Assembly (NCBI GenBank): GCA_027306655.1
Contig: DAHUZL010000053.1
Coordinates: 1 to 55,012, forward strand
Length of the DNA stretch: 55,012 bases
Reading direction: 5' to 3'
Source of the DNA: Candidatus Dormiibacterota bacterium
GTDB taxonomy: Bacteria; Chloroflexota; Dormibacteria; Aeolococcales; Bog-877
Under the pieces are notes generated by a model, which ran no database searches, was not told the origin of the DNA, and saw only the letters and a list, made by a program, of their open reading frames with translations. This document shows, piece by piece, positions 38,375 through 55,012 of the stretch (the stretch's first letter is position 1; every line of letters begins with the position of its first letter). Made by a program: the position numbers and the translations under genes.

Positions 38375-39118
38375 CTACCCCGCCCGGTGGACCCGGTGGG
38401 CGGCGGCCTGCTGGCGCGGCCGCAGCACCAGCTCGTCGATGTTGACGTGCGGCGGCCGGGTGACCGCCCAGGCCACGCAGTCGGCGACGTCGTCCGCGGT
38501 CAGCGGCGTCACCCCGCGATAGACCTCCGCCGCGCGCGCCTCGTCACCGAGGAAGCGATTGCGGGAGAAGTCGGTCGCGACCATGCCCGGGTCGATCTCG
38601 GTGACCCGGACCGGACGGTCGACCAGCTCCAGGCGCAGGGTCCGGGTGATCGCGCGGACGGCGTGCTTGGCACTGGTGTAGCCCGCCCCGCCCTCGTAGA
38701 CCTCGAAGCCGGCCACCGAGCCCATGTTGACGATGTGGCCACTGCCGGAGCGCTCCAGCTGAGGCAGCAGCGCCCGCGTCATGCGCACCAGGCCGAGCAC
38801 GTTGACCTCCCACATCCAGCGCCAGTGCTGGTCAGTGATCGCGGTCACCGGATCCCGCCCGCGCGCCCCGCCGGCGTTGTTGACGAGGACGTCCACGGAC
38901 TCCAGCTCCGCCGCGAAGGCGGCGACGCTCTCGGCGTCGGTGACGTCGAGCGCCCGCGCCACCCCGCCCACCTCGTCGGCGACCGCCTCGACCAGGGCGA
39001 GCCGGCGCGCTCCGAGCCAGACCCGGAAGCCGACCGCCGCGAGCCGCCGGGCACAGGCCGCGCCGATCCCGGCGCTGGCGCCGGTGACGACGGCGACCCG
39101 GGCCGTCTCCCCGCTCAC
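38375..39118 (-). CDS. Classical SDR-family oxidoreductase
   Basis: [16 protein letters not shown] and catalytic YTSAKHAV (YxxxK). The GTG start overlaps the upstream gene's stop (GTGA at 39115-39118). Confidence 0.8.
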
Positions 39119-41211
39119 CGCGCCCCCAGCTGGACGCGCAGCGCCTCGGGGCCGGTCACCGGCAGACCGCAGACGGTCCCCCGGCAGACCAGCGCCGACG
39201 CCACCCCCAGCGCCGGCGCGACTTCCGCCGGGGCCGCGGCCGCCGAGGCGCCGACCGCCGCCCCGGCGGGGACGGCGGCGGGGACGGTGAGGCAGAGCAC
39301 CTGGGGACGGTACCGCTCCCGGACCACGGCCAGCAGGGCGGCGCCGTCGCCGGCGAGCCCGCCGGCGAGGGTGACGGTGACCGGCCCCGCGGCCGCCTGG
39401 TCGTGCGCCTGGAGCAGCCCGCCGAAAGCCAGCGGCACCCGCATCGCGGTCGCCGCCAGGGCGTCGAGCACCGCCCCCGCCGCGTCCATCAGCCCGGGGC
39501 GGCCGAGCAGCACGCCCGCCCGCTGCGCGAACAGCGTCGCCAGGGCGGTGCCGCTCGACACCGCGCCGTCCTCCAGCGATCGGGGGCGGACCGGGAGCCG
39601 CGCGTCGTGGTCCTCGGGGACGTCGAACCACCCCACCCCGGCCCGATCGCGGTAGCGGGGCAGGACCGCCTCCGCCACCCAGGCAAGGTCGTCCAGCCAG
39701 CGCGGGTCGAGGGTGGCCTGGTGGGCGGCGGCCAGGCCCAGTCCGAGGGCGCCGACATCGGCCAGGGTGGCGTCGACCGGGGGGGCCTTCGGGTGCCAGA
39801 GGTGGCGGAGCCGCCCCCCCGGGCGGGCGCGGTCGAGGAGGCACTCCAGCGTCTCCAGGCCCATCCGGAGGTGGTCGGGACGGTCAAGGATCAGGCCGGT
39901 GTCGAGCAGCGCGATCGCCGCCAGGGCATTCCATCCGGTGAGACGGGTGTCGTCGCGCCGGGGCGCGACCCGCCGCGCCCGCACCTCCCGCAACCGCGCC
40001 CGCCAGCGGTCCACCGCCGCCCGCAGCTCGGGTTCCGACCCGCCCAGCCCGGCCGCCACCTCCGCGAGCGGCCGGGGCAGGTGGAGGACGGTGGTCCCAC
40101 CCTCGAAGGTGCCGGCAGCCTCGACCCCGAACACCCGGGAGGCGAGGCTGCCGTCCTCGCGGCCCAGCGCCCGGTCGAGCTGCTCCTGGGTCCAGACGAA
40201 GTACCGCCCCTCCTGGCCCTCGCTGTCGGCGTCGGTGCTGGCGGCGAAGCCCCCGTCCGGGACGGCCAGCTCGGCCAGCCCGTGGTCGATCGTGTCCAGG
40301 GCCACGCGCCGCTCCTCATCGCCTCCGAACACCCGGTGCGCCCGGGCGTAGAGGCTGGCCAGCTGGGCCTGGTCCACCAGCATCTTCTCGAAGTGGGGGA
40401 TCCGCCAGGCCCGGTCGACCGCGTAGCGGTGGAACCCGCCCCCGACCTGGTCGTGGATCCCGCCGTGGGCCATGGCGCCGAGCGCCTGCCGCACCGCCCC
40501 CGCCGCGGTGCGCGGGGCGGACGACGTCGCCCCAGCGTCCGGCTCGGCGGCCGCCCGCCCCAGCAGGAACAGGAGGGCGGGCGCGTTGGGGAATTTGGGC
40601 TGGTCACCGAAGCCGCCGTGAAGCGGGTCAACCCCCTCCAGGAGCCGCGCGGCGGCCCGCTCAGGGACCCCCCGGGCCGCGGCCGGAGCGGCCGGCCCGG
40701 GTCGCGCCGGCAGGGGGGCGGGGGCGAGCGCCGACGTGAGCTGCTCGGCAGCAGCGCGGAGGTCGGCCCGGCGCTCGGACCAGGCGGCGGCGACCGCCTC
40801 CAGGACCCGCGGGAAGCCCGCCATCCCGCCCCGGTCGCGAGGCGGGTAGTAGGTCCCGGCGTGGAAGGGGCGCCCGTCGGGCAGGCAGAAGACCGTCATC
40901 GGCCAGCCGCCACGGCCGGTCATCTGCTGGACCGCGTCCATGTACACGGCGTCGACGTCGGGGCGCTCCTCCCGATCCACCTTGACGCTCACGACCAGGG
41001 CGTTCTGGCGGGCGGCGATCCCGGGGTCCGCGAACGTCTCCCGCGCCATCACGTGGCACCAGTGGCAGGCGGCGTACCCGATGCTGACCAGCAGCGGCCG
41101 GTCCAGCCGCAGCGCCTGGGCGAACGCCTCCTCGCCCCAGGGGTACCAGTCCACCGGGTTGTCGGCATGCTCCCTCAGGTACGCGCTGGCGGAGGCGGCG
41201 AGCCGGTTCAT
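39115..41211 (-). CDS. Thioredoxin-domain protein of the DUF255/YyaL (SPATA20-like) family
   Basis: [13 protein letters not shown]...[15 protein letters not shown] (thioredoxin-like CxxC), followed by a long alpha/alpha-toroid-like region ([17 protein letters not shown]). Start [12 protein letters not shown] at the complement of 41209-41211. Confidence 0.8.
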
Positions 41212-41277
41212 CGTCCCACCGTACCGCACCCCGCGGGCGGCCCCGTCCAGGCGCCCCGCGGATGGGACAATCGCGCC

Positions 41278-42039
41278 GTGCGGGCCCCGGATCCGGCAGC
41301 CGTCCCGGGCGGCCCCCCCCCGCTCCGGGTGGGCACGGCCGCCTTCCTGGACCACCTCGACGCCTGGCTGGCGAGCCGGGGGGAGCTGGAACTGCCGGCC
41401 GACCGCAGCGGCGTGGTGGTGGTGGACATGGTCCACGGCTTCATCGACGAGGGCCCGCTGGCGAGCCCACGCGTCCTTGCCCTGGTCCCGGGGGTGGCCG
41501 ACCTGGTCCGGGGGTTCGCCGCCGCAGGCGGGCGCTGGCTCTGCGTGTGCGAGGACGCGCATCCCCCCGACGCCCCCGAGTTCCAGGCCTTCCCCGCCCA
41601 CTGCCTGGACGGCACCCGGTCCAGCCGCAGCGTACCCGCGATCCAGGCGGCGGCGACGAGCGCGGGACTGGACACCACCTGGATCCGCAAGCCGACCCTC
41701 GCCCCCCAGGATGCGGGGCTGCTGGGGTGGGCGCGCGCCGCCGCGACCGCGCTGGGGCCGGAGCGGGCGCTGGTGGTGGCCGGCGCGGTCACCGACCTCT
41801 GCTGCTACCAGGCCGCGATGGGCCTGCGCCTGTGGGCCAACCGGCCGGCGATAGCCCACGAGCTGGGACCCCTGCGGGTGGTGGTCGGGCTCGACGCGGT
41901 GGCCACCTACGACCTGGCGCCGGAGGCGGCCCGGGCGGCGGGGGCGCTGCCCCACGACGGCGACCTGCACCACGCGGTCTTCGCGCATCACCTCGCCCTC
42001 AACGGGGTCGAGGTCGTGGCCCGTGTCCGCTTCACCTGA
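41278..42039 (+). CDS. Isochorismatase-family cysteine hydrolase (nicotinamidase-like)
   Basis: [10 protein letters not shown] (Asp), [15 protein letters not shown] (Lys) and [10 protein letters not shown] (Cys). The start is uncertain: GTG 41278 or GTG 41329. Confidence 0.65.
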
Positions 42040-42928
42040 GCCGACTCCGCCGGCGTGGCTGCGCTGGGGGTTCCTCGGCGCCGCCCAGGCGGTTCGCGCG
42101 CTCGGGACCCATCGCTACCGGGTCGCCGACGCGATCGGCAACGCGGCCTTCGCCTGCCAGCCGGCGCGGCGGCGGGAGACCGGGGCGAACTTCCGCCGCG
42201 CCCTGGGGCCGCTCGGCCCGCACGGAGGTCGCCGGCTCGCGGCCGCCAGCTATCGCGCCTACGCCCGCACCGCCGTCGACTTCCTTTACGTTCAGGCGCT
42301 CACCCGCCCGGAGGTGGTGGCGCTGACGCGGGTGGTCGGGCGGGAGCACATGGAGCGCACCGCCCGGAGGGGACGGGGCGGCATCCTGGTCCTGGTCCAC
42401 CACGGGAGCTGGGACGTGGCCGGGGCGGCGGCCACCGCCTACGGATATCCCGCCCGCTCGGTGATGGACGACGGGACCCACCCGCGCCTGACCGCGCTCG
42501 TGGCCTGGACGCGGGCCCGGCTCGGGCTCACCGTCACCACGCCCAGCGACGGCCCCGCGATCCTGCTCCGGACCCTGGCCCGCGGCGGGTGGGTGGCCCT
42601 CCTCGCCGACATCCCCGGTCCGACCCCCGCCGTAACCGTCCCCTTCTTCGGCCGGTCGAGCCGCTTCTCCGCCGCGCCGGGGATGCTCGCCGCCCGCACC
42701 GGCGCCGCGGTGCACGCCGTCACCTGCCACCGGTCCCCCGACGCCCATTACCTGATCGAGATCCATCCCCCGATCCGGGCCGCCCGCGGCGCCGACCCCG
42801 CGGACGCGATCCGGCCGCTCCTACCCATCTTCGAGGCGGCGATCCGGCGGGCGCCCGAGCAGTGGTTCCCGTTCGACCACGACCGCTTCCTGGGCCCACG
42901 GGCGCGCGGTGACCGGCCCGGACGGTGA
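42023..42928 (+). CDS. Lysophospholipid/lipid A-type acyltransferase (LPLAT; HtrB/PatA-like)
   Basis: HX4D motif in [10 protein letters not shown]. The length, the [11 protein letters not shown] tail and its position directly upstream of a GT4 gene resemble the actinobacterial patA-pimA arrangement. GTG start; it overlaps the previous gene by 17 nt. Confidence 0.7.
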
Positions 42929-47592: not shown

Positions 47593-47857
47593 CGTCGGCC
47601 GGCGCGGAGCGGACCCGGAGACCGGGGGGTGACCGTCGGTGGGCGCACCGGGACTCCTCTGCCGAGGCCGACCGCTCGCGGGAGACGAGGGCCGCGACCG
47701 AGATCTTACGGCCAACCCGCCCGCTCCCAGGTGAAACCTTCCGGCCGTCCCCGGCGTTCCAGATTTGGGCACGGCGCGCAGGGCGCCTCCCCGCCCGTCC
47801 GGGTCCCGACCGTGCCGGCCGGCTCGGGCAGCGCGCCGTGCCCGAGTCTGCCAGGCC

Positions 47858-50185
47858 ATGTGGAACGCCCCCTCCCCCGGCGACCGCCTCACGCGCGCAC
47901 CGGGCGGCCGATCGCGCCCGGTGCGCGCGTCGCGGGGGGGACGGCCCGGGCGGCCGGCCCCGATCGGGAGCCGCCCTCGCTCCCGCCGCCGGCGCTCACA
48001 GGGAGTGAGCGGGCTGGTCGCGACCCTCCTCGTCCTGGTGTTCGCCGTCGCTCTCGGCACCGGCCCGGCGGCGGCGCTCACCCGGGTCCTGGGGGCGCTG
48101 CCCACCCCCCACCGGTTCCCGACCGACACCCTGATCTTCGCGGCGAACGGGACCGAGATCGCCGACCTGCACGCCCCCGGCCAGAGCCGGATCCCGGTGC
48201 CGCTCGCGCGCGTCGCCCCGAGCTTTCTCCGCGCGGTGGTGGCCACCGAGGACCGCAGCTTCTGGACCGGGGGCAGCATCGACTGGCCGCGGCTGGTGGC
48301 GGCCGCCCTCCACGACGTGCTCCACCACGGGACCCTGCAGGGGGCGAGCACCATCCCCGAACAGCTCGCCAAGCTCCGCTACCTCACCGACAACCGCAGC
48401 ATCTCGTACAAGATCCGAGAGATCCTGCTCGGCCAGGAGCTGAGTGCCACCGAGTCGCGGCGCACCATCCTCGACCAGTACGTCAACGACGTCTACTTCG
48501 GCGATGGCGCCACCGGGATCGAGGCGGCCGCGCTCACCTACTTCGGCGTTCACGCCAGCCAGCTGACCCTGCCGGAGTCGAGCCTGCTCGCCGGGCTGCT
48601 GCCCGCCCCCAGCGCGCTCGACCCGCTGGTCAACCTGAGCGGCGCGCGGGACCGGCAGCAGGTGGTGCTGGCGTCGATGGTGGCCGCCGGCGACCTGAAA
48701 CCGGCGCGGGCGCGGGCGGCGTCGGTCGCACCGCTGCCGCTGCGCCGCACACCGGCGACGACCCTCGACCTGGCTCCGTACTTCGTCGACCACGTGGAGC
48801 GCTGGCTCGCCGCCCGGTTCGGTCCCGCCGTCGTGGCCCTGGGGCTGCGGGTGCACACCCCGCTCCGGCTCGGTCTGGAGCGGCTGGCCCAGCGGCTGGT
48901 GACGGCCACGGTGGCCCAGGGGCAGCCGATGCACATGACGGACGGCGCGCTGGTGGCGATTGACCCCCGCACCGGCGACGTCATCGCCTACGTGGGGGGC
49001 GCCGGCGCCGGGGTGCCCGGCGGGCAGATCGACATGGCCGCCGCGCCGCGCCAGCCGGGGTCGACGGCCAAGCTGGTCACCTACAGCGCCGCCCTCGCCG
49101 CCCACGCGGTGACCATGACCACCCCCGTCCTCGACGCGCCGCTGTCGCTGCCGCGGGGCGGGCCGCCGGGCGGGCGCGGGCCCTTCGTCGTGCACGACTA
49201 CGAGGGCGTCTACCAGGGAGTGGTCCCGGCGCAGGTGGCGCTCGGCAACTCCCTCAACGTGCCCGCCGTCCGCGTCGAGCTCCGCACCGGGGTGCGGCGG
49301 GTGGTGGAGCTCGCCCGCCGGATGGGCATCACCACCCTGGGGGGGCCCGCCGCCGCCTACGGGCCCAGCCTCACCCTCGGGGCCTACCCGATCCCGCTCT
49401 GGGAGACCGCCCAGGTGGGGTCGGTCCTCGCCACCCAGGGGCTGCTCCGTCCGGCCCGCTTCGTCACCCGGGTGACGACGGCCGGAGGCCGCCTCCTCTA
49501 CACCGCCCCGTCCCGGGCGCGGCGCGTCCTCTCGGCGCGGGTGGCGTACATCATGAACGTCATCCTCTCGCGCAACGCCAACCGCCTGCTCGCCTTCGGG
49601 CCGGCGACCGACCTGGTGGTGCCGGGACGGACCGTGGCGGTCAAGACCGGGACGTCGAACGACCTGCGCGACAACCTCGCGGTCGGATGGACGCCCACCC
49701 TGGTGACCGGCACCTGGGTGGGCAACGCCGACGACGCGCCGATGTACGGCGGCGGCATCAACGGGATCAGCGGGGCGGCGTCGCTGTGGAACGCCTTCAT
49801 GACGGCGGCGCTCGCGCCCACGCCCAACCGGTACTTCCCCACCCCGCCGGGGCTCACGGTGGACGGGTCGGCGGGGCAGCGTGTCTACTACCTTCCCGGC
49901 ACCGGCCCCACGACCGCCGTTCTGGGCATCGCCGGCGGCGGCGCGGGCGGCCCCGTCACCAACGTCCGCTACCGCGGCATCTGCCGCTACTGGACCTACA
50001 ACAGCGGCAACTACTACTGGTGCGGCACCGGGCCGTCGGACCTCCCCGGCGACCCCGGACCGCGCCCGGTGACGGCGGCCGCCCCGGGGACGGCGCCCGC
50101 GGGCGACGGCCAGGGGCAGGGGCAGGGCGCCGGCCAGGGCAACGGCAACGGCCAGGGCACCGGCAACGGCCAAGGCACCGGATAG
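47858..50185 (+). CDS. Class A penicillin-binding protein (GT51 transglycosylase + transpeptidase) with C-terminal extension
   Basis: GT51 motifs are ATEDRSFW, GASTIPEQLAK and YKIREILL. Transpeptidase motifs are PGSTAK (SxxK), GNSLN (SxN) and VKTGTS (KTG). ATG 47858 was chosen; a GTG at 48005 is possible. Confidence 0.85.
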   Translation: MWNAPSPGDRLTRAPGGRSRPVRASRGGRPGRPAPIGSRPRSRRRRSQGVSGLVATLLVLVFAVALGTGPAAALTRVLGALPTPHRFPTDTLIFAANGTEIADLHAPGQSRIPVPLARVAPSFLRAVVATEDRSFWTGGSIDWPRLVAAALHDVLHHGTLQGASTIPEQLAKLRYLTDNRSISYKIREILLGQELSATESRRTILDQYVNDVYFGDGATGIEAAALTYFGVHASQLTLPESSLLAGLLPAPSALDPLVNLSGARDRQQVVLASMVAAGDLKPARARAASVAPLPLRRTPATTLDLAPYFVDHVERWLAARFGPAVVALGLRVHTPLRLGLERLAQRLVTATVAQGQPMHMTDGALVAIDPRTGDVIAYVGGAGAGVPGGQIDMAAAPRQPGSTAKLVTYSAALAAHAVTMTTPVLDAPLSLPRGGPPGGRGPFVVHDYEGVYQGVVPAQVALGNSLNVPAVRVELRTGVRRVVELARRMGITTLGGPAAAYGPSLTLGAYPIPLWETAQVGSVLATQGLLRPARFVTRVTTAGGRLLYTAPSRARRVLSARVAYIMNVILSRNANRLLAFGPATDLVVPGRTVAVKTGTSNDLRDNLAVGWTPTLVTGTWVGNADDAPMYGGGINGISGAASLWNAFMTAALAPTPNRYFPTPPGLTVDGSAGQRVYYLPGTGPTTAVLGIAGGGAGGPVTNVRYRGICRYWTYNSGNYYWCGTGPSDLPGDPGPRPVTAAAPGTAPAGDGQGQGQGAGQGNGNGQGTGNGQGTG
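50102..50182 (+). repeat. Coding low-complexity Gly-Gln/Gly-Asn repeat at the PBP C-terminus
   Basis: The degenerate ggc-cag/aac periodicity encodes GDGQGQGQGAGQGNGNGQGTGNGQGTG, immediately before the TAG at 50183-50185. Confidence 0.7.
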
Positions 50186-50232: not shown

Positions 50233-50787
50233 TCAGGCCAGCACCGCCTCCTCGGCCCCCGCCAGCACCTGCCACCTCCGCCGCTGACCGGCCCCGAGCC
50301 CCGCGCCGGTCGCGAGCGCGTCGCCCACCGCGGCCAGGAGCTGGGCCGCCCGGAAGGGCCGCTCCAGGTACACGAAGCCAAGGGCCTCCATCCGCCGGCG
50401 CAGCTCGGGGCCGGGGGTCCTGGCGCTGACGAAGACCACCGGCGTCGCATCCCACCGGTGGCTGTGGAGGAGTCGGCGGCAGAGCTCGAAGGCGCTGAAG
50501 TCGGGAAGGTGGACGTCCAGAACCGCGCACGCGACCCGGGTCTCGGCGGCCGCCTCGAGCGCCGCCAGGGCGCCCGCCGCCTCCACCACGACGAACCCCG
50601 CCCGGACCAGGATCGCACCGGTCACGGTGCGGCTGTCACGGTCGTCGTCCACGACCAGGACCGGCGGACGCGGCCCCGGGCCGAGGCCGCTCGGGGACGG
50701 AGAGGACAGGGAGGAGGGGGCCACCGGCCCATTGTCGACCGCGGATCTGACAATCCCTTCACCGACGCGCCGCACCTGCGCACCCAT
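50233..50787 (-). CDS. Single-domain response regulator (receiver only)
   Basis: PPVLVVDDDRDS (acidic pocket), AVLDVHLPDFSAFEL (phospho-acceptor Asp context), and PVVFVSAR. No output domain is present. It has a ~40-aa Ser/Pro-rich N-terminal extension. Confidence 0.75.
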   Translation of the reverse strand: MGAQVRRVGEGIVRSAVDNGPVAPSSLSSPSPSGLGPGPRPPVLVVDDDRDSRTVTGAILVRAGFVVVEAAGALAALEAAAETRVACAVLDVHLPDFSAFELCRRLLHSHRWDATPVVFVSARTPGPELRRRMEALGFVYLERPFRAAQLLAAVGDALATGAGLGAGQRRRWQVLAGAEEAVLA

Positions 50788-50875: not shown

Positions 50876-52714
50876 GTGACGGGAGAGGGCAGCGGCCATT
50901 CTCCCGGCAGTGCCCATGCCGCGCCGCTGCTCGCCGCCGGGCTGGCGGTGCTGGTGTACGGCAGCGCGCTGGTGTGGCTGGCGGCCGGGATCAGCCAGGG
51001 GGCGCACTTCGGCCCCTACTCGGCCGGGCTGCTCCCCGACCTGCTGCTCCGGCCGGCGCTGACCCCGAACGGGATCGCGGCGCCCCGCCGAGCCGCCCCG
51101 GTCTTCTGGGCGGCCCTCACCCTCCTGGGGACGGCCTCAGGCCTGGCCGCCGTCCGCGCCGGGGGCTGGTGGCGGCGGCGGCGACGGCCCGTGAAGGGGG
51201 GCGTCCTGGGGCGGGCCGACCATGCACGCCGAGCGGACCTGGCCCAGCTCCGCGGCAGTTGGCGGCCGGCGGCGCTGGGGCTCGCCGCGCGGGCCGGGGC
51301 GACCCGCGGACGACCGGGGGCCGGCCGGGCGGCGGAGCCAGGCGGAGCGGGGTCGCGCCCCGACGGGGAGCGACAGGTGCCGACCCGCGACGGCTCGGCC
51401 CCGGGCGCGGAGTGCGCCGCCCCCCGGTTCCGGCTGGGCACCCACCACGGTCGCGCGCTCTGGAGCACCCCCGACGACCACGTCCTGGTGTTGGGCCCGA
51501 CCGGGGCGGGCAAGTCGAGCGGCTACGCGGTCCCGGCCGTGCTGGAGTGGCCGGGGCCGGTCGTGGTCACGGACCCCAAGGGGGAGCTGGTCACGCGGAC
51601 GCTGGCCCACCGCCAGCGGCTGGGCCCGGCCGCCGTCTTCGCCCCCATGCTGGCGCCCACCGACCGCTGGAACCCGCTCGGCGCCGTCGTCACCGCCGAC
51701 GACGCGCTGCGGACCGCGGGCCTGCTCATGGGTCGCGCGCCCGACCGCGACCCCTTCTGGCACGACCTCGCCCGCCAGCTTCTGCACGGCCTCGTGGTCG
51801 AGGCGGCGGTCGCCGGCCTCACGCTCGGCGACCTCCTCCGGCTGCTCCAGGAGACAGCGGCCGAGGAGCTCCCCGATGCCGTGGCCCACCCGGTCGCCCG
51901 CCGCATCGTCCAGGGCTCGCTGGCCGGGGGCGATCGCACCGCGATGGGGGTGGTGGCGACGTGCATCGCGCAGCTGGGCCCGTATGGGGCCGACCAGGTG
52001 GTGGCGGCCACCGGGGCCTCCGACTTCGACCCGGCGTGGATCGCCGACGGACGGCTGCGGACGCTCTACTGCGTCGTCACCCCTCACGACGCGATCCTGA
52101 TCCGGGGGTTGGTGGGCGCCCTGCTGTCGCGGGCCTGGCGGGCATGCTTCGCCAGCCCTCCGGCGCCCGCGGCGGCCTTCGTCCTCGACGAGTTCGCCCA
52201 GCTGACCCACCTCCCCGAGCTGCCCGCACTGACCCAGCTGGGTCGCTCCCAGGGGGTGCGGCTGTGCCTCCTGGCGCAGGATCTGGCCTCGGTCCGCGCC
52301 ACCTACGGGGCCGAGGCGGTCGCCGCCCTGTGGTCCAACTGCCGGGCCAAGCTGCTGCTGGCCGGCATCTCCGAGGTGGACCTGCTCGACCAGGCCAGCC
52401 GCCTCGCCGGCACCTCCACCTTCCATGTCCGCGGCTCCGGCACCGACAACGCCGCAGCGGCCCAGGCGCAGGCCGCCCAGCCCCTCCTCCACCCCGACGA
52501 CATCCGCCGCCTCGACCCGTGGGACGCCCTCCTGCTGCACAGCTCGGCGCAACCGGCGATCGTCCGCCAGCGCCGCTGGTACCGCGATCGCCGCCTGCGG
52601 GCCGCGGTGGGGCTGCCGGTTCCGTCGCGCGCCCGGCTGGGGCCGGCGCCGGGCGTCCCGCTGCAGGAGGAGGCACCGGTGGTAACCGCGGGCGCACCGG
52701 GCCGGGCGGGCTGA
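50876..52714 (+). CDS. Type IV secretion coupling protein (VirD4/TraG/TraD family ATPase)
   Basis: Two N-terminal TM helices (PLLAAGLAVLVYGSALVWLAAG; VFWAALTLLGTASGLAAV). Walker A in HVLVLGPTGAGKSSGYAVPAVLEW, followed by PVVVTDPKGEL. Walker B-like AAAFVLDEFAQL. ...LLLAQDLASV... matches the usual T4CP layout. GTG start. Confidence 0.8.
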   Translation: MTGEGSGHSPGSAHAAPLLAAGLAVLVYGSALVWLAAGISQGAHFGPYSAGLLPDLLLRPALTPNGIAAPRRAAPVFWAALTLLGTASGLAAVRAGGWWRRRRRPVKGGVLGRADHARRADLAQLRGSWRPAALGLAARAGATRGRPGAGRAAEPGGAGSRPDGERQVPTRDGSAPGAECAAPRFRLGTHHGRALWSTPDDHVLVLGPTGAGKSSGYAVPAVLEWPGPVVVTDPKGELVTRTLAHRQRLGPAAVFAPMLAPTDRWNPLGAVVTADDALRTAGLLMGRAPDRDPFWHDLARQLLHGLVVEAAVAGLTLGDLLRLLQETAAEELPDAVAHPVARRIVQGSLAGGDRTAMGVVATCIAQLGPYGADQVVAATGASDFDPAWIADGRLRTLYCVVTPHDAILIRGLVGALLSRAWRACFASPPAPAAAFVLDEFAQLTHLPELPALTQLGRSQGVRLCLLAQDLASVRATYGAEAVAALWSNCRAKLLLAGISEVDLLDQASRLAGTSTFHVRGSGTDNAAAAQAQAAQPLLHPDDIRRLDPWDALLLHSSAQPAIVRQRRWYRDRRLRAAVGLPVPSRARLGPAPGVPLQEEAPVVTAGAPGRAG

Positions 52715-52724
52715 GGCGTCACCG

Positions 52725-53027
52725 GTGCCGCCGCCGACCGCCGCCACGCTCCTCACCGGGCTCGACACCGTGATCCACACGGTGACCACCCTCGCGTTGG
52801 GGGCGATCGCGGTCCTCTGCCTCAGCGTGGCGGCGATCCGCTACATGACCGCGCTCGACAGCGCGCAGCGGCGGGCGGCAGCGCTGCAGGGGCTGGTGAC
52901 GGTGATGGTGGGAGTGCTCCTGATCGTCAACGAGGGGGCGATCCTCGGATTCGTGGAGGGGTTGACCGGCAGCAACACCGCGTGCACCAGCTCCGCCTGC
53001 GGGTCGACCAGCGCCACCGGACCGTGA
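52725..53027 (+). CDS. VirB2/TrbC-like small two-helix membrane protein (candidate T4SS pilin-like subunit)
   Basis: 100 aa. ...TLALGAIAVLCLSVAAIRYMTALDSAQRRAAALQGLVTVMVGVLLIVNEGAILGFV... forms a helix, a short basic loop and a second helix, as in the TrbC/VirB2 family. It sits directly after the T4CP. The tail is Ser/Thr/Cys-rich. Confidence 0.5.
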   Translation: MPPPTAATLLTGLDTVIHTVTTLALGAIAVLCLSVAAIRYMTALDSAQRRAAALQGLVTVMVGVLLIVNEGAILGFVEGLTGSNTACTSSACGSTSATGP

Positions 53028-53030
53028 GGC

Positions 53031-55012
53031 GTGCGCACGCCGTCCCGGGGCGGGGCCCGCCGCGCCGGGCAGCGGCTGCGCACACTGACGCTGACGCTGC
53101 TGCTCGCCGAGGGCCTCGGGGCGGCGCTGGCGGCCCCGCACCCCGGCCGTCCCGGGCCGGCCGGCTCCGGCGGCGCACCCGGCCTGGTCCTCCGCGCCGG
53201 GGCGCCCCGGCCGCGGAATCCGATCGGAGCGGATCGCACCAGCCAGCAGTGCGGGGGCATCCTCGACCCCGGCTGCACCATTCTCGACGCGATCGTGACG
53301 GGCCCGATCACCCTGATGGGCAGCCTCGACGGCAGTCCCGACCCGGCCCACATCGATCCCGTGTCGGGGGCGATCACGACCGGGCCCTGGCACTTCGTCA
53401 CCACGATGGTGGGCAGCAATCCCCAGGTGGACAGCTACGACGGCAGCCTGGGAGAGCCGGCCCACGCGTGCGGGGCTCAGGGATGCATCCCCTGGGTGGA
53501 GACCTTCGACCACCTCACCGTCCCCCTCTGCCTGGGCCTGCTGGTGCTGGTCTTCCTGGTGCAGGTGATCCTGTTCATGGCCGGGCAGCAGCTGCAGCTG
53601 CGCCGCCACGTGGTTCCCTGCCTGGTGGCGGCGGCGGTGCTGGCGGCCGATCTCCCCCTCCACGTCGCCGGCCGCATCATCGACGCCGGCAGCTGGCTGT
53701 CGCAATCGCTGGTGACGGCGGCGCTGCGCGCGCCGACCACCGCCCTGGCCACCCGCGGGGGACCGCTAAACATGATGACGGTGCTCGCCATCACCGCCTA
53801 CTGCCCTGCCGACAGTCCCATCGTGCATCCCGGGATCCACCTCGCCTGGCCGGGCACCTCCCCCCAGCTGGCGGTCCTGGTCAAGCCCTGGATGGATCCC
53901 ACCGACACCCAGTCCCACTGCATCGCCAGCGACGACCCTGACTTTGCCAAGGAGGTCCTCGACCGCAGCGACAACGTGCTCGGCCCTCCCCTCCACGACG
54001 TCAACTGCGACGCCACCGTGGTCGTCCCCAGCCAGCCCCTGTGCACCAACGTCGACAACTCCGTCAACGACAACCACAACCAGGACTGCCTCGAGGGCAG
54101 CGGCAGCGGCGACGGAGTCCAGGGCCAGCTCGGCGTCCTGCCGCTGCCGGGCGAGCCACGGGCGGGCCAGGGCCAGCGCGCCGCCGACTGCCGCTACGCC
54201 GACATCTACTGGGGGACCACCCCCACCTTCACCAATGTCTGGGCCGGCGTCGGCCCCCACGGACGCAACGGCTATGACGTGCCCGACGGTCTGGTGGGGA
54301 TGGTGGCATTCACCGTCCTCACCGGGCTGGCGGTGGTGGTCGCCTTCAGCTACCTGCTGCGCTACCTGGTGCTGTCGCTGCTGGCCGCGTTCAGCGCGGT
54401 GGCGGTGCTGGCGCTCGCCGTCCCCGGCGGCGGGGCGCTCTTCTCCCGCTGGTTGCGAGCCCTGGTCGGGCTCTCCCTGGTGGTGGTGGTGCAGACGGTG
54501 GTGTTCCTCGTGTTCGTGGCGGTGGTGTCGACCGCGTCGGGGCTGGCGCCCGCCAGCCCTGCGGCCGGCTGTCCGGTCCTCGCCCCGACGGCGGCGGGGT
54601 GCACCGCCGGGGCCGGCGGGGGCGTGCTCGCCGCGGTGGGCAGCGCCGCCCAGGGCGACCAGTTCGTCAAGTGCTGCTTCGCCATCCTCACGGTGTGGCT
54701 GATGCTGACCCTCCCCCGTCACCTCTTCCCCCAGGACATGGGGACGGTGCGGGCGGCTCGGCTGGTCGGTGCGGCAGGGCTGGCGACCGCCGCGGTCGGG
54801 GTGGGACTGGTCGCGCACGACGTGCCGCGGGCGGCGGTGCGGGCGACCCGGCGGATCGCCGGCGCCCCGATGCCGTCCGGGCCGCGGGTCGATCCCGCCG
54901 CCCCGGGCGACGGCTCTCCGCCAGCCGGGGCGGCCTCCTCGGACCGGACCGCGGTGGGGCGGTCCGCCACCACCCCGCCCACCGGGGCGCCGGCCGCGGC
55001 GCGCGGGCGCGG
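53031..55012 (+). CDS. Large cysteine-rich polytopic membrane protein, 5' partial (runs off the right edge); occupies the position of VirB6/TrbL
   Basis: Not in the supplied track because there is no stop in the window. The hand-translated frame is open from GTG 53031 to 55012. It reads VRTPSRGGARRAGQRLRTLTLTLLLAEGLGAALAAP (signal-like)...VPLCLGLLVLVFLVQVILFMAG...GLVGMVAFTVLTGLAVVVAFSYLLRYLVLSLLAAFSAVAVLALAV...LVGLSLVVVVQTVVFLVFVAVV...CCFAILTVWLMLTL... The composition is protein-like. The two tracked plus-strand ORFs and two minus-strand ORFs covering this region are Arg/Pro/Gly shadow frames. Confidence 0.7.
   Translation, partial: MRTPSRGGARRAGQRLRTLTLTLLLAEGLGAALAAPHPGRPGPAGSGGAPGLVLRAGAPRPRNPIGADRTSQQCGGILDPGCTILDAIVTGPITLMGSLDGSPDPAHIDPVSGAITTGPWHFVTTMVGSNPQVDSYDGSLGEPAHACGAQGCIPWVETFDHLTVPLCLGLLVLVFLVQVILFMAGQQLQLRRHVVPCLVAAAVLAADLPLHVAGRIIDAGSWLSQSLVTAALRAPTTALATRGGPLNMMTVLAITAYCPADSPIVHPGIHLAWPGTSPQLAVLVKPWMDPTDTQSHCIASDDPDFAKEVLDRSDNVLGPPLHDVNCDATVVVPSQPLCTNVDNSVNDNHNQDCLEGSGSGDGVQGQLGVLPLPGEPRAGQGQRAADCRYADIYWGTTPTFTNVWAGVGPHGRNGYDVPDGLVGMVAFTVLTGLAVVVAFSYLLRYLVLSLLAAFSAVAVLALAVPGGGALFSRWLRALVGLSLVVVVQTVVFLVFVAVVSTASGLAPASPAAGCPVLAPTAAGCTAGAGGGVLAAVGSAAQGDQFVKCCFAILTVWLMLTLPRHLFPQDMGTVRAARLVGAAGLATAAVGVGLVAHDVPRAAVRATRRIAGAPMPSGPRVDPAAPGDGSPPAGAASSDRTAVGRSATTPPTGAPAAARGR

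Follow-up and report, generated by a model that had tools for sequence, protein, structure and literature searches.

A cysteine-rich membrane protein, probably an extended VirB6-like subunit, in a fixed type IV secretion operon of one Dormibacteria family

The stretch of DNA analyzed here, referred to below as the window, comprises 55,012 nucleotides and is the entire contig DAHUZL010000053.1 (contig label C210) of a Candidatus Dormiibacterota bacterium whose 2.8-Mb genome is available as 233 contigs, 92% complete with 3% contamination. At its right end lies a reading frame at 53031..55012 on the plus strand, for which we use the working name gene X. Gene X is the third gene of a six-gene operon that encodes, in this order, a VirD4-type coupling protein, a VirB2-like pilin, X, a PrgI/VirB3-like protein, a VirB4 ATPase and a CHAP wall hydrolase. 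We consider it probable that X is a VirB6-family (TrbL-like) polytopic subunit of an MPF_FATA-like (Gram-positive-type) type IV secretion system (T4SS), whose six genes form a fixed chromosomal operon in one GTDB family of uncultured soil Dormibacteria.

The frame of gene X runs from a GTG at 53031 to the end of the window without a stop codon, giving 660 codons that are open at the 3' side. Its GC content by codon position is 0.74/0.56/0.93 in a genome of about 75% GC, which is the pattern of a real gene. An earlier note, made from the letters of the window alone, had singled out this frame as open and protein-like, and had set aside four other open reading frames (ORFs) as shadows (52982-53941 and 53944-54702 on the plus strand, 52719-53705 and 53766-54818 on the minus strand). 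All four are indeed in the ORF list, and the 660 open codons, a GC content at third codon positions (GC3) of 0.93 and 57 homologues bear out its choice. Gene X is a real, conserved, single-copy gene.

Since the window is an entire contig, gene X is cut merely by the edge of the assembly. Its missing end was picked up by profile search at the right end of contig C213 (38351-38647, minus strand), where the last 98 residues of X and a stop codon are encoded; the earlier note had advised obtaining the complete frame from the extended contig. This 98-residue piece aligns to residues 660-753 of the closest full-length homologue (P0002), and the last X residues of the window align up to about residues 650-654 of the same protein. 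About five codons are missing between C210 and C213, the ends of which share no exact overlap, and the full protein has about 763 amino acids. Contigs from three other public runs span 52700-54935 or 52770-54879; they carry 4-6 substitutions and no indel, and none of the substitutions makes a stop when the codons are read by eye; no stop or frameshift, which the earlier note had named as the finding that would overturn its call, appears there. These contigs may stem from the source samples of the genome itself and are therefore not independent. They also end at 54879-54935, within the GC-rich Pro/Ala/Arg linker of X. Because the contigs of other runs end at the same place, the break between C210 and C213 reflects a difficulty that recurs in assembly and no biological end.

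Within the window, the operon begins with the VirD4/TraG-type coupling protein of 612 amino acids at 50876..52714 (plus strand; PF02534, E 1.8e-44, together with PF10412 and PF12696), followed by the VirB2-like T4SS pilin of 100 amino acids at 52725..53027 (plus strand; PF18895, E 7.3e-5, 23.2 bits against a cut-off of 26.6), whose stop codon lies 3 nt before the GTG of X. The conserved left neighbour of the operon is a response regulator at 50233..50787 (minus strand; PF00072, E 2.7e-16), preceded by a class A penicillin-binding protein (PBP) at 47765..50185 (plus strand; PF00912, PF00905) that serves as a housekeeping anchor. Farther upstream in the window are genes for fumarase, PlsY, DegV, a glycosyltransferase, citrate synthase and acetyl-CoA synthetase. 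In a relative with a complete 2.49-Mb chromosome (L027), X is followed by a PrgI-like protein of 129 amino acids (E 0.0077), a 793-amino-acid VirB4 ATPase (PF19044, AAA_10) and a CHAP protein (PF05257), beyond which lie MFS, UbiA and URO-D genes; no ORF beyond the six was seen between VirD4 and CHAP at this locus, no structure-based search for a VirB8 fold having been made. In the genome under study the operon continues on C213, where PrgI (E 4e-5, below threshold), VirB4, MFS and URO-D were identified by Pfam, and CHAP and UbiA were placed by tblastn. The MPF_FATA-like gene set, consisting of VirB4, the coupling protein, PrgI/VirB3 (below the Pfam threshold), X and the CHAP hydrolase, is thus present together.

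The conservation of this arrangement was surveyed with tblastn over 39 species-representative related loci. X was found in all 39, VirD4 and the pilin in 38 each (the pilin at 71-90% identity), the PBP, the response regulator, PrgI and VirB4 in 36 each, CHAP in 34, UbiA in 28, URO-D in 25 and MFS in 22, with gene order and orientation identical throughout. Wherever one of the genes from the PBP to CHAP is absent, the contig of that locus ends before reaching it. In particular, PrgI-like and VirB4 genes come after X in 36 of the loci, and the other three end within or just after X, so that X keeps the VirB6 slot between the pilin and PrgI/VirB4 wherever the contig allows the check. In five genomes of sister families, examined for a simple insertion of the operon between the PBP and URO-D genes, these two genes are not neighbours.

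The junction between the pilin and X has a further feature. In 24 of 39 assessable cases, the window included, the pilin stop (mostly TGA, sometimes TAG) lies in the frame of X and abuts its open frame, and in the other 15 it lies in another frame. Read-through of the pilin stop into X was considered and rejected, since the frames coincide in only those 24 cases; the in-frame junction probably reflects shared descent and no programmed read-through. The C-terminus of the pilin (52980-53024) ends in a conserved Cys-x4-5-Cys tail, TACTSSAC here and TACATSSC in relatives, so that the outward parts of the machine would bear cysteines in more than one subunit.

A word-indexed search of 5.8 billion proteins returned 57 relatives of X at 57-75% identity. 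The complete ones have 680-756 amino acids, those with names are all recorded as 'hypothetical protein' of Candidatus Dormibacteria or Dormibacterota, and none carries a precomputed Pfam domain; X itself matches no Pfam family at E<=1. An HMMER profile built from 23 family members (X and 22 homologues, alignment A1) was run against 1.84 billion cluster representatives and gave 10 matches, namely one full-length representative and eight C-terminal fragments, these nine at E<=1e-10 and from its own family, and a tenth protein of 119 amino acids (P0066; E 8e-4) that matches on the membrane core. By these searches the X family is one that stands alone at the HMMER level. Among the 23 aligned sequences, 182 of the 660 X positions are invariant. 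The mean identity to the X of the window amounts to 71% in residues 71-158 and 236-420, 59-62% in the membrane helices, 50% in the loop at 503-545 and 20-24% at the two termini, with 38 of 88 positions invariant in residues 71-158 and 83 of 185 in residues 236-420. The hydrophilic segments are therefore the best conserved parts of X.

The window holds the N-terminal 660 codons of what appears to be an extended VirB6/TrbL-like protein of about 763 amino acids. Residues 1-35 (53031..53135) form an arginine-rich N-terminus in which a signal-like hydrophobic stretch follows five arginines, presumably as a signal peptide or signal anchor (helix 10-32 in the AlphaFold2 model); residues 1-70 as a whole are poorly conserved, at 24% mean identity. 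A predicted outside segment 1 follows at residues 36-158 (53136..53504), with the invariant cysteines C74, C82, C147 and C152. Residues 159-215 (53505..53675) comprise two predicted membrane helices with a short Arg-Arg loop (hydropathy peaks 2.94 and 1.99; AlphaFold2 helices 154-192 and 194-205), and residues 233-420 (53727..54290; GC3 0.92-0.95) a predicted outside loop 2 with the invariant C258, C297, C326, C338, C353 and C387 and the invariant motifs HPGIH, SHC and LHD-NCD. The TrbL/VirB6-homologous membrane core occupies residues 404-566 (54240..54728; delimited by hhalign and a weak Pfam match at 420-501). Within it lies loop 3 (residues 503-545, 54537..54665), which falls in a gap of the hhalign alignment and is an insertion relative to TrbL_4 proteins; it contains the invariant C514 and a second cysteine, C524. 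Residues 567-660 (54729..55010) begin an Arg/Pro/Ala-rich, presumably cytoplasmic tail with 20% mean identity, in which the assembly breaks. All of these features lie on the plus strand.

Kyte-Doolittle analysis gives hydrophobic segments at about 160-184, 194-214, 421-465, 475-502 and 546-562, and a weak, poorly conserved one at 576-596. With the N-terminal stretch, they bear out the polytopic protein with a signal-like N-terminus described in the earlier note, which had given at least six strongly hydrophobic helices, and by hydropathy and AlphaFold2 helices X has the four to six or more hydrophobic helices of polytopic TrbL/VirB6 proteins. The same note had counted 16 cysteines by hand; the count is exact (residues 74, 82, 147, 152, 167, 197, 258, 297, 326, 338, 353, 387, 514, 524, 548 and 549), and all the motifs it quoted are present. 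Twelve of them (C74, C82, C147, C152, C258, C297, C326, C338, C353, C387, C514 and C548) are invariant among the 23 sequences, and C197 is conserved in at least 90%. Eleven of the twelve lie in predicted outside, family-specific segments, and the twelfth, C548, in a membrane helix.

Positively charged loops of membrane proteins face the cytoplasm, according to the positive-inside rule. In X, lysine and arginine are absent from residues 71-158 and 503-545 and account for only 8 of the 185 residues of the loop 236-420; the short loops at 186-193, 466-477 and 563-577 have two to three arginines each, and the tail is arginine-rich. Because of the positive-inside rule and this charge distribution, the cysteine-bearing segments, that is, segment 1, loop 2 and loop 3, would face outward after the signal peptide or anchor, provided that residues 421-465 cross the membrane once; in the AlphaFold2 model, 421-463 is a single continuous helix with a predicted local distance difference test score (pLDDT) of 62-84. 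The three short loops and the C-terminal tail of about 190 residues would face the cytoplasm. The predicted topology has five passes, with the N-terminus outside after the signal sequence and a cytoplasmic C-terminus. The VirB6 of Agrobacterium reportedly has five passes, an outward N-terminus and a cytoplasmic C-terminus as well.

The outward cysteines (four, six and two in segment 1, loop 2 and loop 3) may form about six disulfides, for which C74/C82, C147/C152 and C514/C524 are the obvious candidate pairs. In this regard, the genome encodes a VKOR homologue on contig C220 (81 bits), and VKOR is the type of disulfide oxidase found in Actinobacteria and cyanobacteria. About 11 kb upstream of the operon, a frame of 999 codons on the minus strand (39115-42114) encodes a DUF255/thioredoxin-DsbH protein (PF03190, E 1.9e-68); the opposite strand is open there too, which leaves the gene limits ambiguous. 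At the other end of X, the C-terminal 100 residues or so, encoded at C213:38351-38647 on the minus strand (columns of about 700-790 in alignment A1), are conserved again after the variable linker, with nearly invariant G, Y, G, D, A, Y and R and a match to HTH_Tnp_1 at E 0.005, below the cut-off. This part may be a small docking or DNA-binding domain.

A lower-GC insert rich in asparagine and aspartate had also been proposed within the gene. The fall in GC is real and small: GC is 0.67-0.69 at 53825-54124 (0.67 at 53900-54049) against 0.753 for the window, and it is equally low at 53300-53600 of the same gene. This fall in GC would be the argument for a recent arrival of the stretch as foreign DNA in an older gene, a reading that is nevertheless extremely improbable. 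GC3 in the Asn/Asp-rich stretch (residues 297-360) is 0.95, no different from the rest of gene X, so that the fall sits in codon positions 1 and 2 and reflects the content of Asn, Asp and Lys. Moreover, 29 of the 64 positions are invariant, each of the 22 aligned homologues and each of the 39 related loci has the stretch in collinear position, and no repeats or mobile genes flank it. The idea of an insertion or a recent fusion was accordingly rejected on the GC3 value and on the presence of the stretch in all homologues and loci, and only the GC dip itself stands.

Evidence for the relationship of X to TrbL/VirB6 comes from profile comparison of the membrane core. With a lax threshold, 8 of the 23 family members match TrbL_4 (best E 0.01), 2 match TrbL (best E 0.0045) and 4 match ABC2_membrane_3 (best E 0.13) in Pfam; in the X of the window (P0001), residues 420-501 match TrbL_4 positions 144-224. 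We then compared alignment A1 by hhalign with two alignments of recognized family members. Against 11 ordinary TrbL_4 proteins from the same class of genomes (A2), the match has a probability of 86% (E 5e-6, 63 columns). Against 49 TrbL_4/TrbL_3 proteins (A3), drawn from a search that returned 71 proteins, most of them with PF19597, PF19590 or PF04610, it reaches 95.5% (E 1.4e-8) over 122 columns, which pair X residues 404-566 with TrbL 160-282. Of the seven invariant columns of A3 within the aligned span, six (R199, L203, L206, P220, Q243 and P278) correspond to identical residues that are likewise invariant in A1 (R444, L448, L451, P465, Q488 and P562); the seventh, P211, pairs with A456 of X, and a nearly invariant tryptophan of TrbL pairs with W474. 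Six shared invariant residues are more than hydrophobic composition would give. In the ESM Atlas, neighbours of P0002 below the 0.9 bar include TrbL_3, TrbL_4, DUF8208 and TrbL clusters, and the best structural row is a TrbL_3 cluster with TM 0.31/0.46; both are leads only.

On this profile evidence, residues 404-566 of X are shown to be homologous to the TrbL_4/TrbL_3 membrane core, and the X family has additions of its own in about 400 residues that precede the core and in one loop within it. Judged from sequence, X belongs remotely to the TrbL/VirB6 superfamily, as an 'extended VirB6', and to no Pfam family. The VirB6/TrbL likeness suggested in the earlier note therefore stands as regards the polytopic architecture, the homologous core and the VirB6 slot, and fails as regards its proposed check against PF04610, because X reaches no curated threshold of that family or of its sister families in Pfam.

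Several observations weigh against the assignment of X to VirB6 and against the role we build on it. The X of the window scores 7.9 bits against TrbL_4, for which the cut-off is 27, and meets no curated threshold. The homology spans just 122 columns, made up of hydrophobic helices, whose similarity may be overrated by profile-profile comparison, and hhalign between X and a single actinobacterial protein in the VirB6 slot gives only 39.5%. No TrbL protein is among the matches of the HMMER profile in the 1.84 billion representatives, and the A1 profile run against PDB sequences returns two chance-level rows (E 1.3 and 1.7) with no link to VirB6. In NCBIfam, the best match of X is at E 0.41, far below the cut-off, to MMCAP2_0566, a gene of a mycoplasma integrative and conjugative element (ICE). 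The AlphaFold2 model of all 660 residues, built with 23 sequences, has a mean pLDDT of 44.6 and that of loop 2 alone, built with 40 sequences, a pLDDT of 38.9, both too poor for fold comparison; the ESM Atlas's own model of P0002 has a pLDDT of 0.46. If residues 421-465 formed a helical hairpin, loop 3 would lie with its cysteines on the cytoplasmic side. More generally, the topology, the disulfides and the platform role of X discussed below are inferences. The search for relaxases covered three families in the genome under study and only one of them (TrwC) across the family. Finally, an ordinary TrbL_4 gene of about 300 amino acids lies in the same genomes about 25 kb from X, so that X is not their sole VirB6-like protein.

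Two of these points have a side to them that deserves mention. The pilin matches NCBIfam MMCAP2_0565 (ICE_MMCAP2_0565) at E 8.7e-4, far below the cut-off, and this gene adjoins MMCAP2_0566 in the mycoplasma ICE; the weak matches of X and the pilin to two adjacent ICE genes are suggestive. The ordinary TrbL_4 proteins score over the cut-off in 25 of 41 genomes of the class and at E<=1 in 35 of 41. In the genome under study, the gene belongs to a second VirB4-type locus with housekeeping flanks, 20-25 kb downstream of X (C213:11723-18071, minus strand), which encodes a ParA/CpaE-like ATPase of 422 amino acids, a VirB4-like ATPase of 696 amino acids (PF19044, AAA_10), a 198-amino-acid ORF that matches no family, a D-Tyr-tRNA deacylase and the bona fide TrbL_4 protein (29.5 bits; C213:11723-12976, P0067).

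The distribution of X was surveyed with its 181-residue loop 2 as query. Of 41 genomes sampled from its GTDB family, 38 carry X, in one copy each and with all six genera represented, among them 17 of the 17 family genomes that are at least 90% complete and at most 5% contaminated; the three family genomes in which it was not found are 84%, 78% and 89% complete. In a sample of the class, it occurs in 6 of 81 genomes, all from its own family, and in 0 of 75 genomes of four other families; this sampling does not support a phylum-wide occurrence. These tallies include genomes flagged as unpublished (G029, G180, G198, G222, G232 and G243), and our conclusions do not depend on these alone. The long A1 profile, run against 151 genomes of the phylum, returned only the genome under study and one weak row, a result that we distrust, the query being long and genomes of the same class being included. 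VirD4 orthologues at 59-76% identity were found only in the GTDB family that has X (5 of 5 sampled relatives), and 22 of the 75 genomes of other families have VirD4 homologues at 37% identity or less. Two of these distant VirD4 genes, whose surroundings were examined, lie in unrelated settings, one beside a gene for a 734-amino-acid Rce1-like protein and the other beside a MobA-type relaxase and a DNA methylase. In a genome of a sister family (G207), a frame of 734 codons (L071:6948-9152, plus strand), which encodes 16 cysteines and ends in an Rce1-like CAAX protease domain, directly precedes a lone VirD4-like gene, which has 27.5% identity to the VirD4 of the window by tblastn and no other T4SS gene detected within 20 kb.

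The operon has no relaxase, and relaxases of PF03432 and PF02486 were not found in the genome under study, which has a truncated TrwC relaxase on a contig of 2,965 bases (C156:2293-2958, plus strand; 198 bits). Across the family, 10 of 41 genomes have TrwC, often more than one copy of it and in one case as many as 6 matches, which suggests separate mobile elements. The marks of a conjugative element, namely a relaxase, integrase or replication genes and a patchy spread, were not found for the operon, which has housekeeping flanks and occupies the same site in 39 loci. The operon thus behaves as part of the vertically inherited core of one GTDB family, and the relaxases, judged across the family from TrwC, behave as passengers of other elements. 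The lack of a relaxase in the operon and its vertical inheritance make a domesticated system with a cellular role more likely than an active conjugative element.

Comparison with known systems helps to place X. The extended VirB6 proteins include the F-type TraG and forms from Rickettsiales. VirB6 homologues are recognized as the polytopic subunit of T4SSs, and in pCF10 prgH (VirB6) stands before prgI and prgJ (VirB4) (PMC12857230, here and below in the passages available); given this order, the position of X says VirB6. The core homology, the polytopic architecture and the occurrence in VirB4-containing gene sets are shared by X and the TrbL_4, TrbL_3 and TrbL proteins (PF19597, PF19590 and PF04610). 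In contrast to these proteins of about 300 amino acids, X has about 760, with about 400 extra residues in front of the core, an internal core loop of 43 residues and a tail of about 190 residues. 'Extended VirB6' proteins are described as having five or more hydrophobic helices and large hydrophilic domains, the role of which is given as not yet known, and in MPF_FA the VirB6 homologues have 700-900 residues with added unstructured domains (PMC12857230). X resembles them in its five or more hydrophobic helices, its large hydrophilic parts (36-158, 233-420 and beyond 567) and its size. Compared by description, it differs in the place and nature of the additions, which are central or C-proximal, and unstructured in MPF_FA, in the known proteins (PMC12857230), and mainly N-terminal and pre-core, extremely conserved and cysteine-rich in X.

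The gene set as a whole resembles that of the Patescibacteria (candidate phyla radiation, CPR), in which a T4SS related to MPF_FATA is encoded on the chromosome, lacks a relaxase in most cases and comprises VirB4, PrgI, VirB6, a coupling protein and pilins of the PF18895/VirB2-like type (PMC12102498, likewise in the passages available). VirB2-like pilins in Gram-positive T4SSs are otherwise described as an exception, so far confined to the Patescibacteria (PMC12857230). Like these systems, the X operon is a chromosomal, MPF_FATA-like and relaxase-free set with a VirB2-like pilin. Its nearest VirB4 relatives outside the family are from Actinomycetota, at 33-38% identity, in a word-indexed search that is biased to similar composition and hence does not settle the origin of the operon. 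The passages of PMC12102498 at hand describe no cysteine-rich extended VirB6, their single mention of cysteine belonging to the full name of the CHAP domain (cysteine-, histidine-dependent amidohydrolase/peptidase), and name Dormibacterota merely as a sister branch, the Patescibacteria being sister to the branches of Chloroflexota and Dormibacterota. A protein from a plasmid of Embleya sp. (NZ_CP108778.1; L070:5110-7371), a 'hypothetical protein' of 753 amino acids, precedes PrgI, VirB4 and VirD4 and thereby shares the slot and size class of X. It has a TrbL_4-like core at residues 256-404 (26.1 bits, E 6.8e-6, near the threshold) and, unlike X, a long C-terminal extension; hhalign gives 39.5% between the two, over the core only. 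Its gene lies beside a replication-relaxation gene on a plasmid, a mobile context that differs from that of X. Literature searches combining Dormibacter* with T4SS returned no paper describing the six-gene operon or X, and those combining VirB6 with 'cysteine-rich' no matching paper. X thus represents a form of extended VirB6 that had not been catalogued before.

A model can be proposed from these elements. X would oligomerize like VirB6 in the cytoplasmic membrane, beside PrgI/VirB4 and VirD4, and its outward cysteines would be oxidized to about six disulfides with the help of the genome's VKOR-type oxidase. The disulfide-braced outward segments, together with loop 3, might form a rigid extracytoplasmic platform above the membrane, where the mass of X would stand in for the periplasmic parts of VirB6, VirB5 and VirB8-10 of two-membrane systems. 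In the R388 structure, the bulk of VirB6 is a pentameric platform above the membrane, proposed as the docking site first of VirB5 and then of the VirB2 pilin (PMC12857230). By analogy, the pilin would be drawn from the membrane and polymerized at the platform of X, and a substrate chosen by VirD4 would exit via this platform once the wall has been opened by the CHAP enzyme. The presence of VirD4 speaks for exporting a cytoplasmic substrate and against uptake, the ComB uptake system being one that works without VirD4 (PMC12857230).

Other readings of the outward segments have to be weighed against this model. The earlier note had raised a fusion of a VirB6-like channel with a surface adhesin or target-recognition domain, in which the outside loops would bind another cell or a surface. 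Some 350 cysteine-rich residues are predicted to lie outside the membrane, the six-gene operon has no separate adhesin gene, Gram-positive T4SSs rely on surface adhesins (PMC12857230), and the related T4SS of the Patescibacteria serves an epibiotic, cell-contact lifestyle (PMC12102498), all of which would suit such a fusion. The pattern of conservation does not. The outside parts are the most conserved of the protein, with 71% identity and 83 of 185 and 38 of 88 invariant positions against 20-24% identity at the termini. Contact surfaces that track varying partners tend to diverge, and the conservation of the loops fits equally conserved partners, such as the pilin with its 71-90% identity, better than variable targets. 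Furthermore, no adhesin, lectin, immunoglobulin-like or repeat family was detected, and the loops are expansions of the N-terminal segment and of the pre-core loop and not a separable added domain. We therefore regard the adhesin fusion as unlikely. Less probable still, and in our judgment very doubtful, is that X is an unrelated membrane enzyme or transporter that stands in the operon by chance, its TrbL likeness being an artefact of hydrophobic helices and its many invariant outside residues of histidine, aspartate and cysteine making up a site for catalysis or metal binding. The lack of a curated family match and of any HMMER-level relative outside the family, the invariant HPGIH, SHC and LHD-NCD of loop 2 and the ordinary TrbL_4 gene elsewhere in the genome could all be read in this way. 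Composition alone, however, leaves unexplained that six of seven invariant TrbL positions are identical and invariant in X, and X occupies the exact VirB6 slot with near-abutting neighbours at every locus that can be checked, a slot filled on the Embleya plasmid, the one actinobacterial plasmid examined, by a 753-amino-acid protein with a near-threshold match to TrbL_4 (26.1 bits).

A bolder form of the VirB6 assignment, which we put forward only tentatively and think rather improbable, takes X to be a self-contained extracellular stalk. Its rigid module of about 350 residues, with six disulfides and possibly metal-binding, would have arisen in one Dormibacteria family by enlargement of the two outward segments of VirB6. 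It would replace the VirB5- and VirB8-10-type parts and nucleate a VirB2-like pilus directly on a protein of the cytoplasmic membrane, within a relaxase-free, vertically inherited T4SS that serves a function of free-living soil cells, for example the exchange of DNA or protein among kin, and not the transfer of plasmids. If this were true, the near-invariant loops and the HPGIH, SHC and LHD-NCD motifs would be signs of a novel domain outside the membrane that has a defined partner or activity.

Returning to X as a VirB6-family subunit, the protein has so far been uncatalogued: public records call it a hypothetical protein and no Pfam family covers it. With 83 of 185 positions invariant in loop 2, its additions must have a fixed partner or activity, and the X family offers a compact natural case for the open question of what the added domains of extended VirB6 proteins do, with six genes free of mobile-element baggage, a pilin and a VirB6 with highly conserved additions. 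For the biology of the organism, our findings indicate that a T4SS gene set became core in one free-living Dormibacteria family and is apparently absent from four sister families, a contrast that dates its domestication to a single branch.

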